Shown: piece by piece, positions 14,271 through 26,631 of the stretch
How positions within the stretch are numbered: position 1 is the first letter of the stretch
Layout of the letters: each line of letters begins with the position of its first letter
Origin: Escherichia phage BUCT-XGG-1
Length of the DNA stretch: 49,653 nt
Direction: 5' to 3' (one strand)
Sequence record: PP069513
Notes under the pieces: generated by a model
Told to the model about the DNA's origin: nothing
What the model saw: the letters and a program-made list of their open reading frames with translations, nothing else
Database searches by the model: none
Translations under genes and position numbers: made by a program

Positions 14271-14289
14271 TTTTAGCAATTAGTGCTAT
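14271..14289 (-). promoter_or_regulatory. orphan box copy in inverted orientation
   Basis: TTTTAGCAATTAGTGCTAT on plus strand; no -10 at the usual spacing in the box orientation; sits 22 nt upstream of tail fibre ATG. Confidence 0.4.
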
Positions 14290-14312
14290 CCATAAAAAAA
14301 GAGGTTTACATT

Positions 14313-16232
14313 ATGGCAATTTACAGAACTGGTACTGCCTCGCTGGCTGCAAACGGCGTGGTAATTGGTGTAGGGACAAAGTGGCAGGACAAGTTATCTC
14401 TGATCCGTGTCGGAGCTACGATCATGTTTCCAACCGTAGTTGGGGCTATTGGCACTATCTCGGCAATAGTTAGCGATACAGAATTGCGAGTTATGACGAC
14501 GAACGGCTCTGTAGTTCCTGCCGGATCTCAATACGTCATCCTGCTTCACGATTCAATTACGGTTGATGGCTTGGCCCAGGACGTAGCGGAAACACTGCGA
14601 TACTACCAAAGCAAAGAAACTGAGGTTGCCGAAGCGATTGACTTCTTCAAAACGTTCGATTGGGAGCAATTCAAGGTTGTTGCTGACAATGTTACGGCTG
14701 ATGCAGCGGCGGCTAACGCAAGTAAGAACGCAGCGGCGGCATCTCAGACTGCGGCTAAGACGTCAGAGAATAACGCTAAGAATTACGCCGATAGCATTAA
14801 CCCGTCTCTTTTGCTGGCTAAAAACCAGAACCTTGCAGATCTTGCTAACAAGGATACGGCAAGATCTAACATTGGTCTTGATCGATTCTTCCAGCTCATT
14901 GGCGCTGGCGAAACTCGAGTAAAAAGCGGAGATGCTTCAAAATGGGTGTTTGTTAAAGATAACGGTGATTGGGGATGTTGGGATTCTACAACAAGCAAAG
15001 CTAAAGCGCTTGCGTTGCCATTTGGCGGAACTGGCGCGAGTGACGCGGCAGGTGCGCGGACTAACTTTGATGTTTACAGCAAGGAGGAATCACTTGACGC
15101 AGTTGGCATTGGAGCATCGCCAAGGCATATTGCAGACATGGCTGATATTCCGAAAGGGTTTGCTCGAATTGTAGACGGATCAACAACTGGAGGGATTAGC
15201 GGATTCACTGGTGCTGGTTGGATTGCTCAGGTTGACGGATCGCAAAGTTATGCTGGGATGTTTGTACAGCCTGACGGTAACAGGGTTTTTGCTGGGGGGC
15301 AAAACATTGGTTCGTCATGGTCGTGGCATGAAATCCCAACACTTGACAGAAACAACCAATTTAAGGGTGACATTGAAATACTTAGAGAGTGGCCAGGGCT
15401 TAGGTTGTCAGTTGCATCCGCTGCGCAAGATGATATTGGCGGACAAATACATGTAGAGAACAACGGAAAGAGTAGTCTAAACATTTACTTCACTAGGAAG
15501 GATGGAAATACTGACGGAAGGAGCAAAATAGCAATAGAAAGACCACCTAGCGAGGTGCTGCTTTTTATGGGCATGAATGGTGGGCTGGCTCCTAATGGCA
15601 CTAATGATTACTTATTTTCTGGTAACAATTTCAACGTTCAGCCTCAAGGTTGGCGTAATGTTGGTGGCCCATACACTAACGGACCAACATCCGGAAGTGT
15701 TTATGGCTCTTTGTTCACTCAGTGCACGCAAGGTTTATACTTGGGGAACTCTCCTGATGTTAACCCTAATCAAGTGTGGTGGCAGCAAAGGTTCTTTGAT
15801 ACAAATAACAGGATCTTTACAAGGGTTAACACCAACAAAGGAGCTTGGGGAGGGTGGGCTCAGTTAACGACAAGCGCCGTGTCTGATGAGCGACTCAAGA
15901 ATGTACTGGGTAGTTTGAACGTAGAAGGCGCACTGGACAACATCAACCGGATGGAGTTCAAACTTTTTAAATTCAAAGAGGAACAGGTAGAGGGCAAGGA
16001 ACCTACGTTACGACGTGGTGTTATTTCTCAGCAATTGAGATTGATTGACAAGGAATACACCAAGGAAATTGGCGGTTATTATCACCTTGACCAAACTCCG
16101 ATGCTTCTTGATGGCCTTGCTGCAATTAAGGCATTAAGAGAAAGGGATGAGGATAACAAAGTGAGAATTGCAAAACTTGAATCTGATATTGAGGAATTGA
16201 AGGCGATGGTTTTAGCATTGAGTAGCAAATAA
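14313..16232 (+). CDS. tail fibre with C-terminal intramolecular chaperone (peptidase S74-like)
   Basis: C-terminal AVSDERLKNVLG motif of self-cleaving chaperone domains; Ala-rich shaft; start at ATG 14313 after AAAGAGG RBS. Confidence 0.8.
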   Translation: MAIYRTGTASLAANGVVIGVGTKWQDKLSLIRVGATIMFPTVVGAIGTISAIVSDTELRVMTTNGSVVPAGSQYVILLHDSITVDGLAQDVAETLRYYQSKETEVAEAIDFFKTFDWEQFKVVADNVTADAAAANASKNAAAASQTAAKTSENNAKNYADSINPSLLLAKNQNLADLANKDTARSNIGLDRFFQLIGAGETRVKSGDASKWVFVKDNGDWGCWDSTTSKAKALALPFGGTGASDAAGARTNFDVYSKEESLDAVGIGASPRHIADMADIPKGFARIVDGSTTGGISGFTGAGWIAQVDGSQSYAGMFVQPDGNRVFAGGQNIGSSWSWHEIPTLDRNNQFKGDIEILREWPGLRLSVASAAQDDIGGQIHVENNGKSSLNIYFTRKDGNTDGRSKIAIERPPSEVLLFMGMNGGLAPNGTNDYLFSGNNFNVQPQGWRNVGGPYTNGPTSGSVYGSLFTQCTQGLYLGNSPDVNPNQVWWQQRFFDTNNRIFTRVNTNKGAWGGWAQLTTSAVSDERLKNVLGSLNVEGALDNINRMEFKLFKFKEEQVEGKEPTLRRGVISQQLRLIDKEYTKEIGGYYHLDQTPMLLDGLAAIKALRERDEDNKVRIAKLESDIEELKAMVLALSSK

Positions 16233-16263
16233 AAAAAGGAGCCGCAAGGCTCCTTATTTGTTT
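16231..16263. terminator. bidirectional intrinsic terminator
   Basis: A7 GGAGCC GCAA GGCTCC T-rich, between convergent tail fibre and SSB genes. Confidence 0.65.
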
Positions 16264-16268
16264 ACCAA

Positions 16269-16718
16269 TCAGAATGGGATGTCATCATCGAACTGGTTTT
16301 GCTGCTGCGGTTGCTGCTGCTGGCGTTGTTGCTGCTGAGGCTGCTGACGTTGTTGCTGCTGGCCTTGGCCCTGCTGTGATGGCTCACGCTGGCTGAATTG
16401 CAACTGAGGCCGGATCATCTCTGCGGTTACATAAACAGTGCCGTCATTACCCTGGCGTGACGCCAAGTGAAGCGTGTCGGCAGAAATTGATACAATCTTA
16501 CCTTCCTTGAACGCTTCATCATACCACTGCATAACGTTTTCTTTTGCGAAGAACGTAGCGCGGTAGTTACTGTAAACCGTCTCATCCTCGCCCTGTTGAT
16601 TGCGAATCTTCATGCGTTCTGACAGTTCGACGGCGTACATTTTCCAGCGCCCGTTGTTGTTGCTGCCTTCTTTGGTAAATGGTGCTTTTCGGATCTGACC
16701 AGTGATTACGTGTGGCAT
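16269..16718 (-). CDS. ssb: single-stranded DNA-binding protein
   Basis: Gln/Pro-rich linker and acidic C-terminal tip DDDIPF characteristic of bacterial-type SSB. Confidence 0.85.
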   Translation of the reverse strand: MPHVITGQIRKAPFTKEGSNNNGRWKMYAVELSERMKIRNQQGEDETVYSNYRATFFAKENVMQWYDEAFKEGKIVSISADTLHLASRQGNDGTVYVTAEMIRPQLQFSQREPSQQGQGQQQQRQQPQQQQRQQQQPQQQNQFDDDIPF

Positions 16719-16758
16719 TGTATATTTTCCTTTTTGGATGTGGCCGAAGCCACTTTAA

Positions 16759-17415
16759 TTAGAATTGCTCGATGGATTCAGATTGTACAGGTTCGGACGG
16801 TGCATTTGCAACCTTGTCTTCAACCTTTTGAGTATCTGCCTTTTTCGCTGGCTGGAAACCGCGAGCGTTACCGATACTCAGTTCAGCCTTGCGCTTCTGC
16901 AAGTGGTCTTCTGCAATCTTCCATTCCGCCGCGCCAAGCGAACCTTTCGCGCTCTTATAGATCACCTGGAGGTCTTCCAGTTTTTCACAGTTGGTGATAA
17001 GTTTTTTGTAGTCCGCTGCCGTGCGCTTCGCGATTTCAGCGTCGTCATCGCTCTGAGTGATTCCAAGCGCTGCGCACAATGCGTAACGGCGACCGTATGA
17101 GGTTGTTGAGCCGTAAGCCTGGGCGCTAATCTTCTCGATCGGCATATTGTACTGGAACGCAAGCCACTCGCCGGAGCTGTGAAGTATGAGTGTCTCAATG
17201 TGCATTACCTTCTCGGTTGACGTGTCAAGATTTGACTGGATAACCATAAGGTCATGCTCTTTTAGTGCTGGCTCAACAGCCTCCAGAACGTCCGTCAGGT
17301 TTGAGTAATGGTTTTTCAGGTGAGTGTTAAATCCTGATTTTTTTGCGATAGCAAACTGCTTTTTAGCTGCAATTAGAGCGGCTGAAACATTCGAAAACTT
17401 CTCTGATGTACGCAT
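16759..17415 (-). CDS. Erf-family single-strand annealing protein
   Basis: GSTTSYGRRYAL-type motif of ERF recombinases; next to exonuclease and SSB. Confidence 0.7.
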   Translation of the reverse strand: MRTSEKFSNVSAALIAAKKQFAIAKKSGFNTHLKNHYSNLTDVLEAVEPALKEHDLMVIQSNLDTSTEKVMHIETLILHSSGEWLAFQYNMPIEKISAQAYGSTTSYGRRYALCAALGITQSDDDAEIAKRTAADYKKLITNCEKLEDLQVIYKSAKGSLGAAEWKIAEDHLQKRKAELSIGNARGFQPAKKADTQKVEDKVANAPSEPVQSESIEQF

Positions 17416-17452
17416 TATATATACCTTTGTTTACTTTGTTTGATTTACGGTG

Positions 17453-17495
17453 ATTATAGCAAATCACCGCGTTCGTGTTTAGCAAAAAGTGCTAC
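17453..17495 (-). promoter_or_regulatory. box promoter candidate
   Basis: Box GTAGCACTTTTTGCTAAA (17478-17495) containing TAG stop of HNH gene; hairpin CGGTGATT..AATCACCG holding TGCTATAAT (21-bp gap). Confidence 0.5.
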
Positions 17496-17950
17496 CTGCC
17501 ATGCCTTAAAGTAAAATCACCATTCATTGAGATGTATCTTTCCCTTGCCTCTTTCGCTTCAATTGCCGTGTTGAAACTACCAAGGCTTTTCTGCACTCCA
17601 TTTACCTTTACCCTTGCGTTCCATTTACATCTTTGCTTAACAAAAACAACACCTGTGAATCCTGATGTGTTATTTGACTGCATCTTTTTATTTTTATTGT
17701 TGATGGCTCTAGTTACAAGTCTTAGGTTTTCAATCCTGTTATCACTTCTTATTCCGTTAATGTGGTCTATCTCGTAACCTTCTGGTATAGGTCCGTAGTG
17801 CATTTCCCATATAACCCTATGATATAGAAACTTCACATAGTTAAATGAGATCATTAAGTACCCGTTACCTTTCGGTGTTCCGGCAATCTTGCCGCTTTTT
17901 ATCCAGTAAAGGTTGCCGTCTATGTATTTTAATTTCTCATTGAAATTCAT
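17492..17950 (-). CDS. HNH-AP2 homing endonuclease
   Basis: EIDHINGIRSDNRIENLRLV HNH core and AP2-like C-terminal region; inserted between exonuclease and Erf. Confidence 0.8.
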   Translation of the reverse strand: MNFNEKLKYIDGNLYWIKSGKIAGTPKGNGYLMISFNYVKFLYHRVIWEMHYGPIPEGYEIDHINGIRSDNRIENLRLVTRAINNKNKKMQSNNTSGFTGVVFVKQRCKWNARVKVNGVQKSLGSFNTAIEAKEARERYISMNGDFTLRHGR

Positions 17951-18981
17951 AGTATTGACTCAAATTGCTTCATTACCCATGGCGGCGTCTCCAGTTCGAC
18001 TTCCGGCTCGCCATTATTGTATGAAGGCCACACATCATTGGCTTCGCACATTGAAAAGGTGTGAATCACGCTCATGTACTGCGCTCGCCCAATCTTAAGC
18101 TGATCGCCACTCATCCGGTACGCCATAGGCAAGTAAGGTTCTTTCTTCTCCTGGGCCAGCAAGCGCACAACCACAGGTCGCGTTTCCTCAAAGCATTTAA
18201 CGAACAGGTCACGCTGCAATGCCATCTTGAGGTAATATCCAAGGTTGAACGCCAGGCGCGGGAACTCGGTCGGGTTGGCGCTCATTGTCGTTTTGTAATC
18301 AGTGATGACGACGATTTCAGGGTGAATCTCAGGATCGTAACCCATGCGCCGAATTGCTTCTGGATCATTAATGATGTCAACATGGTCAAGTCGCACCTTA
18401 ACTTTAACGCCACATATTACGCCGAACAAAGAATACTCACGGAATGCCGTTTCGCTGTTCATGCAAGCGTTATGCTCAGGAATCATTTCAAGAACCTGGC
18501 GCATACTGACGCAAGCGTCGTAGTCTTCCGCCTTAACCAGTTCCACGCCATCTGCCCACGCCTGACATTGTGCGATCATATCAATCAGCCACATGACGTT
18601 GAGGTCTTCTCCGCAATCAACCATCATCTTGATCAGCTCTGGATATTGCTTGCCGCTTGTACCAGTCAGGCCAAATGATTTTAATTTCGTTGCCAATGCC
18701 GCCTGGCTAGTGATTACGTTTTCAATCTCGCTATCTTTCGGTGCACGGCGATACTGGCGTTCAAACAGTGCCTTACTCTCGAAATTGGTATGCGACTGCG
18801 TACCGAAGACCAGTGCCTTAGTCGTCGAGTTCATTTCAAACTTCCACGCCGCAGGGCAAGTACTGTGGATCTTGCTGAGTGACGAACCTGATACATACTC
18901 GGCGGTCCACTCATCTTTGCTGTGGTAAAAGTCGTTGCTCATTTCTTCTGACGTGAAGTATTGAAACAGTGGCTTTGTCAT
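17947..18981 (-). CDS. PD-(D/E)xK recombination exonuclease
   Basis: RLDHVD ... ITDYKT motif consistent with a PD-(D/E)xK nuclease; partner position to Erf. Confidence 0.55.
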   Translation of the reverse strand: MTKPLFQYFTSEEMSNDFYHSKDEWTAEYVSGSSLSKIHSTCPAAWKFEMNSTTKALVFGTQSHTNFESKALFERQYRRAPKDSEIENVITSQAALATKLKSFGLTGTSGKQYPELIKMMVDCGEDLNVMWLIDMIAQCQAWADGVELVKAEDYDACVSMRQVLEMIPEHNACMNSETAFREYSLFGVICGVKVKVRLDHVDIINDPEAIRRMGYDPEIHPEIVVITDYKTTMSANPTEFPRLAFNLGYYLKMALQRDLFVKCFEETRPVVVRLLAQEKKEPYLPMAYRMSGDQLKIGRAQYMSVIHTFSMCEANDVWPSYNNGEPEVELETPPWVMKQFESIL

Positions 18982-19266
18982 CTCTTTAATCCTCGTTAGT
19001 TGTTGATGCTGGTAACTATACTCGCTTGGTTGCGTTAGTCAAGTGGTTACATGTAGATGTTTGTAATCACGTGTATGCAATGGCGTCAGTTACATAAAAT
19101 GTCTATCCATACCAGCTATAGCTTGATGTAAACAGCTTGTATATCGTGTATACCATTTTTCGCTGAGGGTGCATTAGTGTATGCGTGATTAGATACTGTA
19201 TGAATATACATATTAGAAATTTATAAGCGGAATACTCTATAGAAGTAGTTACACGATATACACAGT

Positions 19267-19345
19267 AATATATATAATAATAATAATTATAGTAGAGGGT
19301 TGATATATATAGATATTTTAATGTAACTATCGCGTAACTAGGCGT
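19267..19345 (+). repeat. AT-rich element, copy A of a two-copy repeat
   Basis: ATATATAATAATAATAAT..GAGGGTTGATATAT..GATATTTTAATGTAAC..GCGTAACT, homologous to 48941-49016; GTAACT/GTTACA iterons around it. Confidence 0.6.
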
Positions 19346-19412
19346 AACTGCGCGTATATCATTTTCCGCGGACGAGATTGTATACATCGAGTTACATCGG
19401 TTACACGTATAC

Positions 19413-19458
19413 AATAGCACAAATAGCTAAAGACTCCGCCGCTCGTTGCATGTATAGT
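19413..19458 (+). promoter_or_regulatory. box promoter candidate (variant AATAGCACAAATAGCTAAA)
   Basis: Box 19413-19431, TGTATAGT at 19453-19458 (23-bp gap), then membrane peptide and lipoprotein genes. Confidence 0.45.
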
Positions 19459-19494
19459 TACTCCATAGAAAGCAAATCACATAAGGGTTAAGAA

Positions 19495-19590
19495 ATGAAA
19501 AACGTAATCATCTCAATAATTTTCGGCGCGGCTGTTACTGGTTTCTTCGTGTGGGTTCTCACTCTTGCTTCTAACTTCAACGGATTCTAA
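19495..19590 (+). CDS. small membrane peptide (31 aa)
   Basis: Unlisted ORF MKNVIISIIFGAAVTGFFVWVLTLASNFNGF; hydrophobic. Confidence 0.3.
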   Translation: MKNVIISIIFGAAVTGFFVWVLTLASNFNGF

Positions 19591-19591
19591 T

Positions 19592-19816
19592 ATGAAAAAG
19601 TTAATTTTGATTGTGGCTGCACTTGCCTTTACTGGTTGTTCATCAATGCCTGAGCGCACTTGCACGGCTGTGTATGAATCAGGCGGTGCAGATTACTCGG
19701 TTTATGTTTTTGGTACGCAGAAACGCGGAGAGGAACTTTTACTCAGGGCTGGATACCCATTCTCGTTTCACTACGTATCTGAGCGTAACTTCAAAGATCA
19801 TGACTGCGGCGGTTGA
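19592..19816 (+). CDS. lipoprotein (possible Cor-like exclusion protein)
   Basis: MKKLILIVAALAFTGC lipobox; small; start taken at ATG 19592. Confidence 0.45.
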   Translation: MKKLILIVAALAFTGCSSMPERTCTAVYESGGADYSVYVFGTQKRGEELLLRAGYPFSFHYVSERNFKDHDCGG

Positions 19817-19820
19817 TTAA

Positions 19821-19845
19821 TAAAAAAGCCCCGAAAGGGGCTTTA
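19821..19845. terminator. bidirectional intrinsic terminator
   Basis: A6 GCCCC GAAA GGGGC; strongest for minus strand after the late operon. Confidence 0.65.
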
Positions 19846-20535
19846 ATCGTATGCGGCTGTGTTAATTGCAGTAATCACATTACCGTTATTCGTAGTGCTA
19901 AGAACTTGACCGCCCCCCATTGTTGACTGGGCGTTTATTCTTGTTCTGCTTCCATCAAACCTACACGATGAGCCAGCTGTCGCGTTAGATATTATTGGTT
20001 GACCTGTTGGTAGTGAGCCAACCCGTATCTGACTGTTGCCAAGTGTGGTAGGAACAACCGCCCAGCTACCATTTAGTGTAACATCTATGTTTAATCCACC
20101 ACCAGAAAATCCAGGCGTACCAACTGTTGTTAAATCACTCAAAACCTTTGTCTCGTTTGTAAGAATTAGCTTACCTTGAGCATCCCATATAGCCATACCC
20201 CACCTAGGAAGGGTTTGAGGGAATATTGCAAAAATATAATACGTCAGAACAAATGACTGATTATTTGGGTTTACGCCCTGAAAGTAAATCTTACCAACGT
20301 TTGCACCGGATCTAAACGTGAATGCTGAGAGTGCTGTGCCATTACTGGTATTTGTCGTTTTGCAAAATGCAATAACTGGCACACCCTGCGGTATGTTTAC
20401 GTATCTCTCTGCATACTGAGTTCTGTTTTTTTCACCAGACGATATTGTGCCTTTAGAGTAAAGGGCGAACGGTGTTGATAAAGGTGTTATAAACGGGTTT
20501 CCGTTCACATCTATAAAAGCTCCATATTCAGCCAT
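19843..20535 (-). CDS. distal tail protein (possible receptor-binding accessory)
   Basis: Last gene of late operon; N-terminus MAEYGAFIDVNGNPF paralogous to 20535..20843. Confidence 0.45.
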   Translation of the reverse strand: MAEYGAFIDVNGNPFITPLSTPFALYSKGTISSGEKNRTQYAERYVNIPQGVPVIAFCKTTNTSNGTALSAFTFRSGANVGKIYFQGVNPNNQSFVLTYYIFAIFPQTLPRWGMAIWDAQGKLILTNETKVLSDLTTVGTPGFSGGGLNIDVTLNGSWAVVPTTLGNSQIRVGSLPTGQPIISNATAGSSCRFDGSRTRINAQSTMGGGQVLSTTNNGNVITAINTAAYD

Positions 20536-20843
20536 TATGATTTCTCCAGGTATGCTATCAAATAGCAGTTTGATGATGGGTACACGTTCGCCCCTGGTGA
20601 TGACGTCGGGGTTATAGTGATCTTATTGCCGCTGGCTACAATCTTTCTTGCTGGTCCGCTTATCGCACCATCATCAAGACTGATAACAAACCCTACCTTT
20701 GTTCCTGCTGGTATTGAGTATGAAAAAGAGTATGAGTTTTTGCCAGCCGAAAGGAAATCAAAACCAACAACACTGACAGGTTTGATACCATAGTTGTTAT
20801 ATTTACCATTTGCATCATATGTAGCAATTCCGTATTCATCCAT
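20535..20843 (-). CDS. distal tail protein paralog
   Basis: N-terminus MDEYGIATYDANGKY similar to downstream gene; overlapping stop/start. Confidence 0.45.
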   Translation of the reverse strand: MDEYGIATYDANGKYNNYGIKPVSVVGFDFLSAGKNSYSFSYSIPAGTKVGFVISLDDGAISGPARKIVASGNKITITPTSSPGANVYPSSNCYLIAYLEKS

Positions 20844-20890
20844 AATTTTTCTCCAATTTAAAAGGCAAGTCCATTTGCCTATGTTATCAC

Positions 20891-23800
20891 TTAGTAAGAG
20901 CCAGTCAAACGTCCGATCTGAACTCTAAGCATACCAGAACCATCTGCAACCGATATAGTTTGGTTTGTTTGTTTCATCTTGCCCTCTCCAGATGTTGAGC
21001 CGTTATTCTCGAATGTACCCCCTTTGTCAAGCCTCCAACCAGTCTGACCTGCAACATAGTTGTTGGACTCAATCTCGTTACCGATTTTTGCGTTGGTAAT
21101 GGAGCCATTCTTGATGAATGCGTCACGCATAAATACCTGCGAACCTTCAATAAGGAACGGGAACTGCGCCAGAGTTCCGCCAGAAATCCTACCGACTGCG
21201 AACCTGTCAACGTCAAACAATACCTGTGCTTTCGGTGCCGATTCGCTGCCAACTAACTGCATACCGAACCCAGCATTGTACTCAACGCCGTCGCGCTTAA
21301 TACCCAGCTTGACGGTGTACGTTGAACCTACCGAACCGTTATCAATCCACGAGTCAAGTTTCTGGCTTACCGTCGCTGCCGCCTGATTCGCCGTGTTCTC
21401 CGCATTACCTGCCGCAGTGTTAGCCGCGTTTGCTTTCGCTTCAACCTGAGTGATTGCCGATGCCCTGGCGCTTGCCTCATCTGCGATTGCTTTATCCACT
21501 CGCGTGATTGATGCCTGAGTCTCAGTTTTTAAATCGCCAACCTGCTTAGTAAACTTGGTGTCGAGTGCCGTAATTGCCTGCGCTCTAGCCATGCTCTCAT
21601 TGGTGATTGCCTCATCCAAACGACCGATGCTTGCGTTAGTCGTAGTGGTAAGGTCGCCTACCTGCTTAGTGAACTTAGCATCAAGCTCCTGTACTGCCTT
21701 CACCCGCGCTTCCGTTTCTGTCGCCACCGCTTCCTTAATGGTAGTGATCTGGCCCTGAATGTCATCACCGATGCTTGCTCTCAGTTCTTCGATTGCAGCG
21801 ACGCGTGCCTCAGTCTCAGTAGCGATAAGTTCTACAGCGTGACCATACTCAGCCTTACGAAGTCCATTCTGTTTCCTGGTCCAAATCAGGTTGTAATCGT
21901 TAGCCAGGGCGTTGTGAATATCCGCCTGCGCCTGCTCCCTGATCTTGTTTGCGCTTTCGATTGTGCTTTCAGCAAGCTCCTTGAAGATCTCAGAGTTTTC
22001 AATGTCAATCTTAACGACGTCCATAATCTGATCCGCATCATCCGAAGCCATACCCCTGACAAAATCAGTCCATTCAGACACGTTACCGATCCTGTCAACC
22101 GATCGGATTCTGTACCAGTCAACGTAACCAGCCGGAAGAACGCTGTGCCAGTATTCGTACTGCGGATAAGGGATCAGCGTAAGCAGTGATGAATCACTAA
22201 CCTGACCTGACGGCGATTGATGCAATTCAATGTAGGCCGTATCCTCTGTTCCCGCTGGCATACCCCATTTCACGCGAATGCCGAATACTTCGTCCGTACT
22301 GGCTGTCAGGTTAATTGGTTTGCCTGGTGCGCCAATCTTGCCTGTCAACCCAACACTCACAACCTCAGACCATGGAGACGCATTCTCTCCGCTTGAGATG
22401 CTCCTTACGCGTACGTGATAATTGCCTGCGTAAATCCCTTCAACCTCGACTTCTTTGTTTGCTGTGCGCGGTACGTTCATCCAGTTGCCATTGTCCTTGC
22501 GCCACTGCACATCGTACTTGCTCGCGTACTGCACTTTATCCCATGAGATGACCATAGTTTCTACGCTCATTCCCTGGACAATCCTTGAGTATGAAGACGC
22601 CTTGATATTTTTAGGCGGCTGCATGTTGTCAGGATCTACAATGCTGGTTGGTCGGTCATCAATATTTACGCCGTAGTCGATTTCGTCGTATTTGTTCGGA
22701 TCGTATTCAACTGCCGTGATGCTGTATGTGAACTCATCATCTCCGTCGCCCTTCGTGATTCCGGTTACAACGTATTGCTGCAAGGCCACATCAGTGCGGT
22801 CGATTGCGAACACTGTGTTGGGTTGAACATCAAAGCCGAATCCAATGTTAAGCTCAATGGTTTTCCCGTCCGCAGATACTTTTGAAATCGTCCGACGCAC
22901 CGGATTTCCGTCAGCCTTGTTCACGATAATGAAATCACCAGCGCGCGCATCGACCTTAAAGTGTGTGAACACTTGCAGGCCTGACACTTCCATTACACGA
23001 CCTGATAACGAAAGCGTCAGATTGCTTGACCAGAAGTTATCAGCGATTGCTACCACGTCGCCAATCATCGGAATCATACCCTCAAGGCCAGTTGCAAAAC
23101 TCACCGTTGTGCTGCGAAGGTTTGTTTTGAGAACCCAGCGGCCCCGTCGATTCGCTTCACTGCGTCGAGTACATCCGATCGCCGTAATGCTTGTCGGGTT
23201 ATGCCCGAAGCGTAACGAAGCGTTAAGGTCGAACACCCCCTCAATGTCTTGGCTGTACATGTTCTGCTCATCGTCGAACGTGACGTTGCATGTTGTGTAC
23301 ATGCTTTTTTCACTTGCGAACGTATAGGCAAATGAGCCATCAACGACGTTATCGTTAGTAAAAATATACGACGCCTCTCTCGGTCGGTCGATGACAATTG
23401 AAAGGCTCTCGCCGTTCCAGAAGCTCATTCCTCGGAATATTGAGCAAATGTCTCGCACAAGATTGTACGCTTCAACCTGAGATTGAATAACTACATCGCA
23501 AAGATAGCGAGGCTCTGTTCCGCCGTGACCGTCTGGCACTTTCTGGTCGCAGTATTGACCAGCGTCATATAGTGACCACTTATCAACTGCAATCCCCAAT
23601 TCACGTTGGTCGAGTCCGTAGCGCTGATTGGTGATCAAATCATAAAGCACCCACGCCGGATTATTTGACCACGCTTTTTTGAAGCTGCCATCCCATGTGC
23701 CGTTATACTCGCGAAGCTCTGGATTATAGTTGCTCGGAACGTTAATGAGCTTCCATTTCTTTTTCGTGCTAATGCTTGGGATCTGCGTGAATAGCTCGCT

Positions 23801-24499
23801 GTTAAACTCGACGTAAACAAGACCAGTCAGAGGGTAACGGAATTTAGCATCAACCACTTCGGCATAAGACTGAATGTTTATCGTATCAACGACGCGCGCA
23901 TCAGTTGAATCAGCCGTAACTCGGCGCACACGCAATAGAACCTGGCTATTGAACGTTGGTAGGTCGATTCGCTTTGTTTTGTCATATCCGCTAATTGTCT
24001 TTCCGTCGATTACGTCCGATAAAACCTCTTGGTAGCTCCCGCCATCAACCGCCATATCTACGGCCCACTTCACGACCACGCCGACCATATCGCCGTTTTC
24101 TTTCGTGGTAACGCCGCGAGGCATCAGGATTTTGACGCGTACGGCTGATAGCTGTTTATTCGTTACCGAGATCACGTAGGGCGTCGTTGTTTTCAATTCA
24201 CGACCTACAGTAAATTCAGCCGCCGTGTCGTTGAAGCCTTTGATGTAATCCTGTGTCTGAGTACCAGGTCTGAACTCAGCCGTTACTCCTTCATAGTTAA
24301 CCTCGCCGGAAGGTGCAATTACAGGAACATCATTAAGATACAAGTCCTTTAATGAGAAATTAGCATCAACCTCGCCATCACTGACAGCGAGTAAAACCTT
24401 AATCTTGTTGATTGAGATCAGGTTATCTTCCATCTCCTGTGGGGTATGCGGCTTGCTGCTGCCACCCTTTCGGCCAGTCACTACATTATTTTTAATCAT
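20891..24499 (-). CDS. tail tip/central fibre protein (lambda J-like host specificity protein)
   Basis: 1202 aa, follows M-L-K-I homologues; fibronectin-III-like segments and imperfect ~35-39-aa repeats (TETEARV, FTKQVGDL). Confidence 0.8.
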   Translation of the reverse strand: MIKNNVVTGRKGGSSKPHTPQEMEDNLISINKIKVLLAVSDGEVDANFSLKDLYLNDVPVIAPSGEVNYEGVTAEFRPGTQTQDYIKGFNDTAAEFTVGRELKTTTPYVISVTNKQLSAVRVKILMPRGVTTKENGDMVGVVVKWAVDMAVDGGSYQEVLSDVIDGKTISGYDKTKRIDLPTFNSQVLLRVRRVTADSTDARVVDTINIQSYAEVVDAKFRYPLTGLVYVEFNSELFTQIPSISTKKKWKLINVPSNYNPELREYNGTWDGSFKKAWSNNPAWVLYDLITNQRYGLDQRELGIAVDKWSLYDAGQYCDQKVPDGHGGTEPRYLCDVVIQSQVEAYNLVRDICSIFRGMSFWNGESLSIVIDRPREASYIFTNDNVVDGSFAYTFASEKSMYTTCNVTFDDEQNMYSQDIEGVFDLNASLRFGHNPTSITAIGCTRRSEANRRGRWVLKTNLRSTTVSFATGLEGMIPMIGDVVAIADNFWSSNLTLSLSGRVMEVSGLQVFTHFKVDARAGDFIIVNKADGNPVRRTISKVSADGKTIELNIGFGFDVQPNTVFAIDRTDVALQQYVVTGITKGDGDDEFTYSITAVEYDPNKYDEIDYGVNIDDRPTSIVDPDNMQPPKNIKASSYSRIVQGMSVETMVISWDKVQYASKYDVQWRKDNGNWMNVPRTANKEVEVEGIYAGNYHVRVRSISSGENASPWSEVVSVGLTGKIGAPGKPINLTASTDEVFGIRVKWGMPAGTEDTAYIELHQSPSGQVSDSSLLTLIPYPQYEYWHSVLPAGYVDWYRIRSVDRIGNVSEWTDFVRGMASDDADQIMDVVKIDIENSEIFKELAESTIESANKIREQAQADIHNALANDYNLIWTRKQNGLRKAEYGHAVELIATETEARVAAIEELRASIGDDIQGQITTIKEAVATETEARVKAVQELDAKFTKQVGDLTTTTNASIGRLDEAITNESMARAQAITALDTKFTKQVGDLKTETQASITRVDKAIADEASARASAITQVEAKANAANTAAGNAENTANQAAATVSQKLDSWIDNGSVGSTYTVKLGIKRDGVEYNAGFGMQLVGSESAPKAQVLFDVDRFAVGRISGGTLAQFPFLIEGSQVFMRDAFIKNGSITNAKIGNEIESNNYVAGQTGWRLDKGGTFENNGSTSGEGKMKQTNQTISVADGSGMLRVQIGRLTGSY

Positions 24500-24534
24500 G
24501 ATGTTTAACCTTTCGTGCGATTTATCGAAGTTTC

Positions 24535-24543
24535 ATTATACAG
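24535..24543 (-). promoter_or_regulatory. candidate sigma70 -10 (CTGTATAAT) upstream of J
   Basis: TATAAT preceded by TG, placed after terminator and before RBS of J gene. Confidence 0.3.
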
Positions 24544-24546
24544 GCA

Positions 24547-24571
24547 CAAAAAAACCCGCGCAAGGCGGGTT
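24547..24571 (-). terminator. intrinsic terminator between I and J
   Basis: CCCGCC TTGC GCGGG followed by T7 on minus strand. Confidence 0.6.
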
Positions 24572-24575
24572 TAAC

Positions 24576-25169
24576 TTAGGCCACATCTTCCGCAACGCTG
24601 TATGCTGAGAACGTTGCTCCGCCAACTGTTCGATACCCGTATGGCACAGGGATCGGGTTTCCTGCTGCGGTAGTGTTTACTGCGCCGCCGAATGCGTATG
24701 ATGGTTTGTTCTTGCTGCTTTTAACCTCCATCTTTGAGCCGCCTTGCTGCGGTGAAATCATCTGCATTACGCCGCCGAGAACCATCGCGCCGCCCATCAT
24801 GAATGCTGATGTTGCGAATGTACCCATTAGCGCCAGCGATGCGCCGCCAGTGTAGAATGCCGCCACCATCATTACCGCGCCTACAACAATCTGGAACATC
24901 CCGCCGTTTTTTGAGCCTGTAGGGATCGGAATAATGCGAACCTCCTTAGCACAAACGAATGCGGCCTCGTCATGCTGACCTACATTCTTTCCGTCAACGA
25001 ATACTGCGAAGTGCATACGTGAGCCGATCTCACTCTGCATGAACTCCTTAAACCCTTCCACCTGGGAGGATAACGCCCGAATTGCTTCGGGGTATGAGTC
25101 AACGTCGAACTTATGGAAAACACCGAATCGACGGCCAAGAGAACCGGATAGCTTAATTGTTTTTAACAT
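24576..25169 (-). CDS. tail assembly protein (lambda I-like)
   Basis: Position after K; Gly/Ala-rich hydrophobic C-terminal half. Confidence 0.65.
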   Translation of the reverse strand: MLKTIKLSGSLGRRFGVFHKFDVDSYPEAIRALSSQVEGFKEFMQSEIGSRMHFAVFVDGKNVGQHDEAAFVCAKEVRIIPIPTGSKNGGMFQIVVGAVMMVAAFYTGGASLALMGTFATSAFMMGGAMVLGGVMQMISPQQGGSKMEVKSSKNKPSYAFGGAVNTTAAGNPIPVPYGYRTVGGATFSAYSVAEDVA

Positions 25170-25888
25170 TTTTCTAAGTCCTTATGTCTGCAAACCATTA
25201 CTGTATGTTCCTGGAACCAGCCTGAGTAAATATCCGTCTTTGACAGCTTACCGAAGGCGTGGTGAAGAATTTGATTGTTTCCAAGGTAAATTCCCGCATG
25301 ATTCCACACTTCGGCCTGTAGCTTCATGATTACCATGTCTCCAGGTTCAGGATCTTTCCCTGTTTCAACGAATCCCTCTTTGATGTAGTTGTCCTGGTAT
25401 AGATTCTCTCCATGCTCAGGCTTCCACCATTCGTAAGGCTTTCGGAAGTCATTCAGGATTAAGCCCTGCTCTTTGTGCCACGCCATCACCAAGCCCCAAC
25501 AATCGAATGAGCCAAGCGACCAGGGCCGACCAATCAGCGGCATAGCTTCTGGATGAACGATTCTCATGTCACCTTCTGGCAGACTTACAATCACCCATGG
25601 CAATTCCATCTCATTCAATACGCATAGGTCATGTGCGCTTGGTAAAGTGGTCGCCCCGTCGCCAGTGTGACTATGGACGATGGCGATCGTGGTTAGGTCG
25701 GCGTCATCCTCAATGCAGGCGTACTGTACAGAATGAAGCTGAAAACCTTTTTCCGGCTCTGAGTGAACGTTGTCAATAGGCCAGTATTTTTGCACTCGGC
25801 CTTTCTGAGTAACCACCCCGCAACATTCATTGGGGTAAACTGATTTTGCATGTTCGAAGATTGCCATCTTAATTTTGCCGTTAATCAT
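25163..25888 (-). CDS. tail assembly protein (lambda K-like; MPN/JAMM + NlpC/P60)
   Basis: HSHTGDGATTLPSAHD JAMM-like motif and Cys...His NlpC/P60-like pair (FDCWGLV, WNHAG). Confidence 0.75.
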   Translation of the reverse strand: MINGKIKMAIFEHAKSVYPNECCGVVTQKGRVQKYWPIDNVHSEPEKGFQLHSVQYACIEDDADLTTIAIVHSHTGDGATTLPSAHDLCVLNEMELPWVIVSLPEGDMRIVHPEAMPLIGRPWSLGSFDCWGLVMAWHKEQGLILNDFRKPYEWWKPEHGENLYQDNYIKEGFVETGKDPEPGDMVIMKLQAEVWNHAGIYLGNNQILHHAFGKLSKTDIYSGWFQEHTVMVCRHKDLEKC

Positions 25889-26631
25889 TGGTTTTTCCTG
25901 TCAAGTGATGCGACCGCGCAGCCGCCGAAATCTAATTCATTTTTGTCGCCAAATCGTAATTTGCAGGCGGTTACCGTTCCTGCGCATACGTCCTGTGATG
26001 GATCAGTTACTGGATTGTTGTCTTTGTCAAACATCCTGCTTCCATTATAACCGCAACCGCGTCCGCTCCGATACCATCCACGCTGCGCCCAAAAGCAAAC
26101 ACTCTGAGTAACTCGCGGCGGGATCATAATGCCATCCATATCGTATGGTGATGTCAGGTCGAATCGCGCAAGGCTCTGATCCACAAAGTTCGGTCGTTCA
26201 ACGTAGTAAACGTATTTTCGGAAGTCACCAGCCGCAACGTTACCTGTGCTGCCTAGCATTTCGCGTGAGGTTATCCAGATAGTCACCTTGGCCTGCATCA
26301 TGCCGTTGTAGGACCGGATAAGCGCCGACACGCGGCTATCAAGGTTTGACAAAGATAGCTGAGGCTTTCCGGCCTTGCCGTTACCATTTAGGTCAATGCC
26401 AGAGATGCCGAAAGGGCGTGCGCCATATTCATTTCCCTGAAAGGTGATTGTTTTTGGCTTAAGGCTTCCGCCTGGTTGTGTCGCTGCGAGAATCTCTTCC
26501 GGCGTAAACTGGATGTTCTCGTTGTGGAATCTGTAGACCTGCGCGCCGAACTTAGTTCCGTCAACGTCAATTAGCGTCATGATCTCACCAGGGAATAGCC
26601 CCTGCAATACGTTTTCAAACTTAGGTGTCAT
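25885..26631 (-). CDS. minor tail protein (lambda L-like)
   Basis: Size and position between M and K homologues; C-terminal Cys cluster. Confidence 0.7.
   Translation of the reverse strand: MTPKFENVLQGLFPGEIMTLIDVDGTKFGAQVYRFHNENIQFTPEEILAATQPGGSLKPKTITFQGNEYGARPFGISGIDLNGNGKAGKPQLSLSNLDSRVSALIRSYNGMMQAKVTIWITSREMLGSTGNVAAGDFRKYVYYVERPNFVDQSLARFDLTSPYDMDGIMIPPRVTQSVCFWAQRGWYRSGRGCGYNGSRMFDKDNNPVTDPSQDVCAGTVTACKLRFGDKNELDFGGCAVASLDRKNQ

Follow-up and report, generated by a model that had tools for sequence, protein, structure and literature searches.

To our knowledge, there has been no experimental demonstration of the receptor-binding protein (RBP) of T1, which is among the oldest model phages, and the locus that follows J is the field's candidate for it. 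In the Drexlerviridae, Dhillonvirus and their relatives, the position directly after gpJ has been described as the 'bona fide RBP locus'. Its alleles agree with the terminal receptor in every case and are transferred horizontally (PMC8594841; bioRxiv 10.64898/2026.04.02.716166). Genome-wide screens in a 2026 preprint bore this out, and families specific for FhuA, BtuB, LptD and YncD, together with accessory proteins, were named there (bioRxiv 10.64898/2026.04.02.716166). The T1 block, for which the term extended cor cassette is also in use, consists of ORF32, ORF31 and ORF30, the last of which is cor (PMC5238451). Two genes together with cor were described in the KanT1 paper for T1, HK022, N15, ES18 and phi80, and the BASEL phages carrying two genes and cor were all found to depend on FhuA (10 of 10) (PMC13164509); indeed, all characterised carriers use FhuA (PMC13164509, PMC8594841, PMC10373560). 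The corresponding pair of Dhillonvirus JLBYU60 was modelled in 2025 as an Ig-like protein of ~11 kDa and a 'hand-like' protein of ~23 kDa, the latter giving the best predicted complex with FhuA (PMC12309495). Published AF2/AF3 models put the homologue of the 230-aa protein discussed below on FhuA (PMC12309495; bioRxiv 10.64898/2026.04.02.716166).

This analysis concerns the same locus in Escherichia phage BUCT-XGG-1 (PP069513), a T1-like member of the Drexlerviridae and, going by its closest relatives, a Nouzillyvirus; its tail genes share 91-94.5% nucleotide identity with those of the Nouzillyvirus phages PH1062 and P817 (Drexlerviridae). The window is the whole stretch of DNA that was analysed, 49,653 nt in length. 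The C-terminal third of J, a 102-aa gene, a 230-aa gene and a convergent cor were found to form one exchangeable block, which is homologous to ORF32-ORF31-cor of T1 and in place of which a close relative carries an LptD-type block. We interpret this block as a receptor-recognition cassette of the T1 type, specific for FhuA, in a T1-like siphophage, and we assign this reading, including the mechanism proposed below, a probability of about 0.75. The cassette is of an already known kind, and the BUCT-XGG-1 copy is a new allele. FhuA is predicted as the terminal receptor of BUCT-XGG-1, on the basis of the correlation across phages and of structure prediction.

Gene layout and transcription of the locus

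A preceding sequence-only reading had described two tandem genes of 230 and 102 aa at the end of the late operon, directly downstream of a J-like protein. Both ORFs are present on the minus strand, and the J-like protein is a 1202-aa J homologue (central tail fibre / tip attachment protein) at 24499..20891, likewise on the minus strand (phrog_31, E = 0; PF24801, PF13550, PF09327). The tandem position after J therefore stands, while the gene order has to be corrected: J is followed by a 47-nt spacer, the 102-aa gene (20843..20535) and then the 230-aa gene (20535..19843). The overlap between the two genes, previously given as one codon, amounts to a single nucleotide at the junction TCA TAA TGG (TAATG). 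The 102-aa gene has a GGAG ribosome-binding site 8 nt upstream.

The pair does form the end of the transcription unit, as had been proposed. It is followed by a G+C-rich, terminator-like hairpin at 19825-19844, flanked by an A-run and a T-run, which separates the convergent 230-aa gene and cor and is classed as a bidirectional intrinsic terminator. The hairpin scan gave an 8-bp stem with 5 GC pairs and a T-tail on the minus strand (sequence AAAAAAGCCCCGAAAGGGGCTTT), and a search of positions 18900-21000 against Rfam returned a terminator hairpin alone, below threshold. Another terminator-like hairpin, with a 6-bp stem and a T-run in the consensus scan, is located on the minus strand at 20863..20880, in the 47-nt spacer that follows J. 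Expression of the 102-aa and 230-aa genes might be lowered by it in comparison with J, yet the call is weak, as the number of such sites does not exceed shuffle expectation.

On the plus strand, cor (19592..19816) encodes a superinfection-exclusion lipoprotein of 74 aa with a signal peptide and a lipobox (...AFTGC; phrog_1119, E = 1.7e-27). The protein scores 50.6 bits against the NCBIfam equivalog NF047972, 'phage exclusion lipoprotein Cor', for which the cut-off is 31, and it is 76.7% identical to T1 Cor (ORF30). Its sequence similarity to T5 Llp is weak (E = 1.1); a similarity in fold between Cor and Llp has been reported (PMC13164509). A 31-aa, strongly hydrophobic ORF (MKNVIISIIFGAAVTGFFVWVLTLASNFNGF), read from the sequence at 19495..19590 on the plus strand, ends 1 nt before the cor start codon, inside the swapped segment. 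Homologues of this peptide were found upstream of cor in two of the relatives' loci (L053 and L066), and it may be a small membrane peptide that is co-expressed with Cor and is possibly its partner.

Two further observations concern the neighbourhood of the cassette. Between the exonuclease gene and the cassette lies an AT-rich non-coding stretch (19103-19420), whose spurious translation (…MYTISSAENDIRAVT…YYNYYYYIYY…) is nearly unchanged in the distant relatives Rtp L058, L006 and L054. As this translation recurs at such a distance, the DNA itself is unusually conserved, and the stretch, for which Rfam gave no match, may be a promoter or a regulatory region. On the other side of the exonuclease gene, before the Erf-like gene, a segment of ~460 nt (~17496-17958) is absent in P817, with flanks that are ~93% identical. 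It carries a 152-aa ORF (17492-17950, minus strand) that has the look of an HNH-type homing endonuclease by eye, and the segment looks like a homing-endonuclease insertion.

An exchangeable block and its counterparts in relatives

The extent of the block was obtained by blastn against P817 (L002), which is 92.5-92.9% identical to BUCT-XGG-1 at 16254-19419 and 89.9% identical at 21990-26000, and which shows no homology to window positions 19420-21989 except for a patch of 59 nt. At this position, P817 has a 320-aa gene (L002 3630-4592) that is convergent with J and encodes an LptD-type RBP, matching the LptD-binding RBP of Oekolampad (9rpt_C) with an E-value of 8.3e-66. Given where the homology breaks, the swapped unit, an exchangeable receptor-specificity cassette at 19420..21989, therefore consists of the C-terminus of J, both genes and cor, with the upstream 31-aa ORF. 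These boundaries are exact and could serve to exchange receptor specificity with P817 and similar relatives by engineering.

The part of J that belongs to the swapped unit comprises residues ~837-1202, corresponding to the 3' ~1.1 kb of the gene (20891-21989). Identity to T1 J is 72.8% for residues 1-836 and 49.7% from residue 837 to the end. Residues ~837-1130 (window 21000-21990) form a long helical region of repeated units (…ATETEARVAAIEELRA… …ATETEARVKAVQELDAKFTKQVGDL… …ITALDTKFTKQVGDL…), to which Pfam gave a spurious sub-threshold coiled-coil match alone (Cor1/Xlr) and for which Opt-79 and P817 gave no nucleotide match. Two motif-like units terminate the protein, WRLDKGGTF and ISVADGSGMLRV; in the motif scan, the last 50 residues contain two hairpin-like motifs, WRLDKGGTF at 1155 and ISVADGSGML at 1182.

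The idea that this is a host-range cassette is supported by the published match between alleles and receptors and by P817, where flanks of 90-93% identity enclose an LptD-type RBP. The pair is thus not kept unchanged across phages with different receptors, P817 having the LptD-type block instead. The 102-aa and 230-aa proteins do not stand in for one another; they are two components of one cassette.

A wider comparison was made with 72 loci of relatives, recovered with the conserved part of J, in which at least five alternative gene sets follow J. Besides BUCT-XGG-1, 14 related loci show the T1-type arrangement, with a 102-type gene, a 230-type gene and a convergent cor. Other loci carry the LptD type or one of three two-protein types (L010/L064; L014/L046/L047/L007; L054), and a further set consists of long J proteins without extra genes, as in TLS. 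The extreme C-terminus of J was found to vary with the type of cassette. The orientation of the genes also differs: in every case (P817, L006, L058 and others), the LptD-type RBP gene lies on the other strand from J and converges on it, in an operon with its lipoprotein gene, whereas FhuA-type genes are co-directional with J. In the LptD type, a virion protein would thus be transcribed together with an exclusion gene, which is odd with regard to the timing of expression.

Four loci (L009, L012, L048 and L067) have a 230-type gene and cor without a recognisable 102-type gene. In L009 and L012, its place is taken by a short frame-broken ORF (MGSQLGMQTGSITTT…), which suggests that the small gene is decayed or frameshifted there. 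If such phages are viable, the small protein is either dispensable or misassembled in the record.

Both genes occur together in ~340 phage records, which include Tunavirus, Dhillonvirus, the lambdoid phages HK022 and phi80, and Klebsiella phages. Among these carriers are the FhuA-dependent phages phi80, HK022, JLBYU37 and Teewinot (receptors: PMC10373560, PMC13164509). The best nucleotide match of the cassette is Tunavirus Sfin-3, with 72.7% identity. The closest cassette allele, with 84-87% identity, belongs to a Klebsiella phage, so the FhuA variant that is recognised may differ.

The two proteins, their shared motif and their proposed roles

The 102-aa protein (20535..20843, minus strand) is a homologue of T1 ORF32 (phrog_557, E = 2.7e-27), to which it is 76.5% identical (L032), and the 230-aa protein (19843..20535, minus strand) is a homologue of T1 ORF31 (phrog_425, E = 7.6e-69), with 75.0% identity over 228 residues (L032). 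Neither Pfam nor NCBIfam contains a family for them. Soluble beta-sandwich folds were predicted for both by AF2. The model of the 102-aa protein (pLDDT 82.9, with low confidence at residues 1-20) shows an N-terminal conserved motif (1-22) and a six-strand beta-sandwich (24-101); searched against BFVD with Foldseek, it gave no match below E = 1e-3. The model of the 230-aa protein (pLDDT 81.8) comprises two beta domains, ~20-105 and ~135-230, the second being the larger, each preceded by a conserved motif segment of low confidence (1-19 and 106-130). The N-termini of both proteins are acidic.

The 230-aa model has three-dimensional similarity to the solved RBP of Oekolampad, and its fold thus matches that of a virion RBP. 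At the level of sequence, the family profile, run with hmmsearch on PDB sequences, had no match at E-values up to 10, and hhalign gave a weak alignment to the LptD-type RBP (probability 33%, E = 4.5e-4) that is collinear from the N-terminus over 184 columns. The alignment with the large protein of the L010-type cassette has a probability of 90% over 203 columns. We also considered whether the 102-aa and 230-aa proteins (332 aa together) represent a split version of the ~320-aa LptD-type RBP. This idea is not supported, because the alignment of the 230-aa family with the LptD-type protein is collinear and begins at residue 1 of the latter, and no alignment to that protein was obtained for the 102-aa family. 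The LptD-type RBP contains three copies resembling the motif described below when examined by eye, and two according to the regular expression.

The fold and the gene layout bear on whether the pair belongs to the virion at all. [quoted passage not shown] However, no signal peptide, lipobox, beta-barrel or transmembrane/hydrophobic segment was found in either protein, their maximum 19-residue hydropathy being 0.85 and 0.76 against 1.5 for Cor, and the membrane-protein names in the databases are therefore not borne out. Low membrane affinity has been computed for homologues (PMC12309495). In addition, transcription of the pair belongs to the late tail operon and runs on the other strand from cor, with a terminator lying in between; the fold corresponds to that of a virion RBP of solved structure, and the C-terminus of J co-varies with the pair. 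We consider such a partnership with Cor very unlikely.

The two proteins had further been proposed to share an N-terminal module. Their N-termini, MDEYGIATYDANGKY and MAEYGAFIDVNGNPF, are indeed alike, but the resemblance is short: M[D/A]EYG at residues 2-7, with a score of 13 that is reached in 0.2% of fixed-register shuffles, and a BLASTP E-value of 2.8 for the two N-termini alone. The best match of the N-terminus of the 102-aa protein, MDEYGIATYDANGK, is internal to the 230-aa protein, at residues 109-122 (LPRWGMAIWDAQGK), with a BLOSUM score of 36 that none of 2000 shuffles reached and a BLASTP E-value of 0.006. What is shared is consequently a motif of ~13 residues and no domain. It reads YG-x4-D-x2-G or, in other forms, [Y/W]G-x4-D-x2-G-x-hydrophobic and [Y/W]G-x4-[D/N]-x2-G, and it occurs three times outside J: each of the two proteins opens with it, and a further copy begins the second half of the 230-aa protein. 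Residue G5 does not vary in either family, and WGMAIWDAxGK hardly varies.

The motif segments combine high conservation with low model confidence. In the 230-aa family, residues 11-30 and 101-160 are the most conserved (mean column identity 0.73-0.91), and in the model the pLDDT is below 50 at residues 1-19, 123-125 and 127-129, blocks over 101-130 averaging 49-69. In four of the five cassette types, both proteins start with the motif, as does the LptD-type RBP, examples being MAEYGYAIYDDRGRE, MPAGLQAWDASGNL, MSGFEVLNNDGSTI, MAGLYGWEMYDSAGRL, MSDYGVELINDYGLK and M..GIFIDLNDGRP. The strict pattern is present in 24 of 124 cassette-zone ORFs and in 17 of 1431 others, counts that include related sequences and hence inflate the significance. 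The lateral tail-fibre gene of BUCT-XGG-1 (14283-16232, plus strand) begins with MAIYRTGTASLAANGVVIGVGTKW, and an N-terminus homologous to it in the relative L023 is among the few background matches of the pattern.

The suggestion that the pair are paralogues received moderate support. When profiles of close homologues were compared with hhalign, the 13-column motif alone was aligned (probability 46%). After 46 diverse representatives from the HMM search described below had been added to the profile, the 102-aa family aligned with residues 1-91 of the 230-aa protein, N-terminus to N-terminus, over 83 columns (probability 80%, E = 1.3e-5). The AF models agree in outline, with a poorly modelled N-terminal segment followed by a beta domain in both the 102-aa protein and residues 1-105 of the 230-aa protein. 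Paralogy of the 102-aa protein and domain 1 of the 230-aa protein is thus plausible from profiles and models; between domains 1 and 2 of the 230-aa protein, no similarity was detected beyond the motif (probability 0.4%). The 102-aa HMM, searched against 1.84 billion representative proteins, gave 76 matches, most of them ~100 aa long and none of them a ~225-aa, 230-type protein. The few long matches (433-4211 aa) were rejected as compositional noise: a Pfam scan of four of them returned mainly sub-threshold fragments of unrelated repeat/Ig-like families for three and none for the fourth.

On the basis of fold similarity and the published complex models, the most likely FhuA-binding RBP is the 230-aa protein, with the 102-aa protein most likely serving as an adaptor or accessory subunit. 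We propose that the RBP would be attached by non-covalent contacts at the distal tip of the J trimer, like pb5 on pb4 in T5, and would bind the extracellular face of the E. coli outer-membrane transporter FhuA, thereby triggering irreversible adsorption. The 102-aa protein, as a related single-domain subunit, would act as adaptor or accessory between the J tip and the RBP. The motif segments may fold only upon assembly, forming a docking interface with the matching J C-terminus, which would explain why this part of J travels with the cassette. We suggest such docking because the motif is at once the best-conserved and the least confidently modelled part and because a similar motif ends J; a limited literature search found no description of the motif segments as an assembly interface with the J tip. 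In favour of docking, the tail-proximal end of the RBP is disordered in the cryo-EM map of Oekolampad (PMC12685063). Cor produced in the infected cell would block FhuA and thereby keep released progeny and other FhuA-dependent phages from adsorbing, FhuA blocking being the mechanism of Cor given in literature cited in PMC13164509.

The division of labour between the two proteins could also be reversed or shared, with a trimer of the 102-aa protein capping the J trimer as the FhuA-binding tip, in the manner of the C-terminal domain of lambda J, and the 230-aa protein serving as an accessory or second-receptor factor. For FhuA, the small-protein trimer gave the weakest and the large protein the best predicted interaction, although a stable small-protein homotrimer was modelled on the spike tip in the same work and the better scorer varies by phage (PMC12309495). 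The small protein directly follows J, and conservation of the small-protein families extends over two cassette types (probability 94-97%). Nevertheless, LptD-type cassettes function with a single large protein and no small one, and in the four loci mentioned above, the 230-type gene and cor are present but a small gene is not recognisable. Taken together, we regard a reversal or sharing of roles as unlikely.

One or both proteins might instead be assembly chaperones of the J tip, like tail-fibre assembly proteins, and not be retained in the virion. Small genes right after fibre genes often encode chaperones, no density for ORF31 or ORF32 is reported in the T1 cryo-EM structure (PMC11945409), and our literature search yielded no proteomic or structural report of T1 ORF31/ORF32 homologues in virions. 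However, J is simply unresolved beyond residue 820 in that structure (PMC11945409). The fold of the 230-aa protein matches a direct receptor binder, and the matching of alleles to receptors (PMC8594841) is hard to explain by a chaperone alone. We therefore judge this explanation very unlikely and retain the 230-aa protein as the probable RBP, with the 102-aa protein as its probable adaptor or accessory subunit.

The docking proposal can be extended tentatively. Every protein of the locus may be attached to the end of J by the motif [Y/W]G-x4-[D/N]-x2-G, acting as a universal plug, a possibility that we consider doubtful. Under this extension, the single motif copy of the 102-aa protein and the two of the 230-aa protein, which are all there are outside J, could cap the three J chains and convert the threefold symmetry into a single asymmetric RBP. 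If this were true, the FhuA, LptD and other receptor families, now called unrelated, would form one superfamily built on a repeated module of ~100 residues, and retargeting would need only a matching plug and J tip. Irrespective of this extension, the analysis makes two small additions: the FhuA-type protein and the solved LptD-type RBP share a fold, and a docking-like motif is common to the proteins of the locus and co-varies with the J C-terminus. Both could possibly help in the design of chimeric tails.

Comparison with T1, Oekolampad, T5 and lambda

The closest described system is ORF32-ORF31-cor of T1, which has the same position after J, gene order, gene sizes, strands, convergent cor and PHROG families, with 75-77% protein identity. 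In comparison with the T1 block, that of BUCT-XGG-1 is a distinct allele on a Nouzillyvirus backbone whose sequenced relatives carry other cassettes, and it has an extra 31-aa hydrophobic ORF before cor. The LptD-type cassette is represented by the RBP of Oekolampad (Bas18), solved by cryo-EM (PDB 9RPT; PMC12685063), and by Rtp44 with the lipoprotein Rtp45. In contrast to the pair described here, the Oekolampad type relies on one protein of ~320 aa that lacks a small partner and whose gene is convergent with J; its receptor is LptD, and its identity to the 230-aa protein is 9%.

In T5, a separate monomeric RBP, pb5, is located at the end of the trimeric pb4 fibre and binds FhuA, which in outline is the same arrangement as proposed here; pb5 has no fold or sequence similarity to the 230-aa protein. 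The lipoprotein Llp of T5, to which Cor has been likened, blocks FhuA from the periplasm. With lambda, finally, BUCT-XGG-1 shares a homologous J scaffold. Lambda recognises its receptor at the tip of J, by a binding domain within J, and has no separate RBP genes after it, whereas J of BUCT-XGG-1 ends in a short conserved strand, and recognition appears to be delegated to the genes downstream of J.
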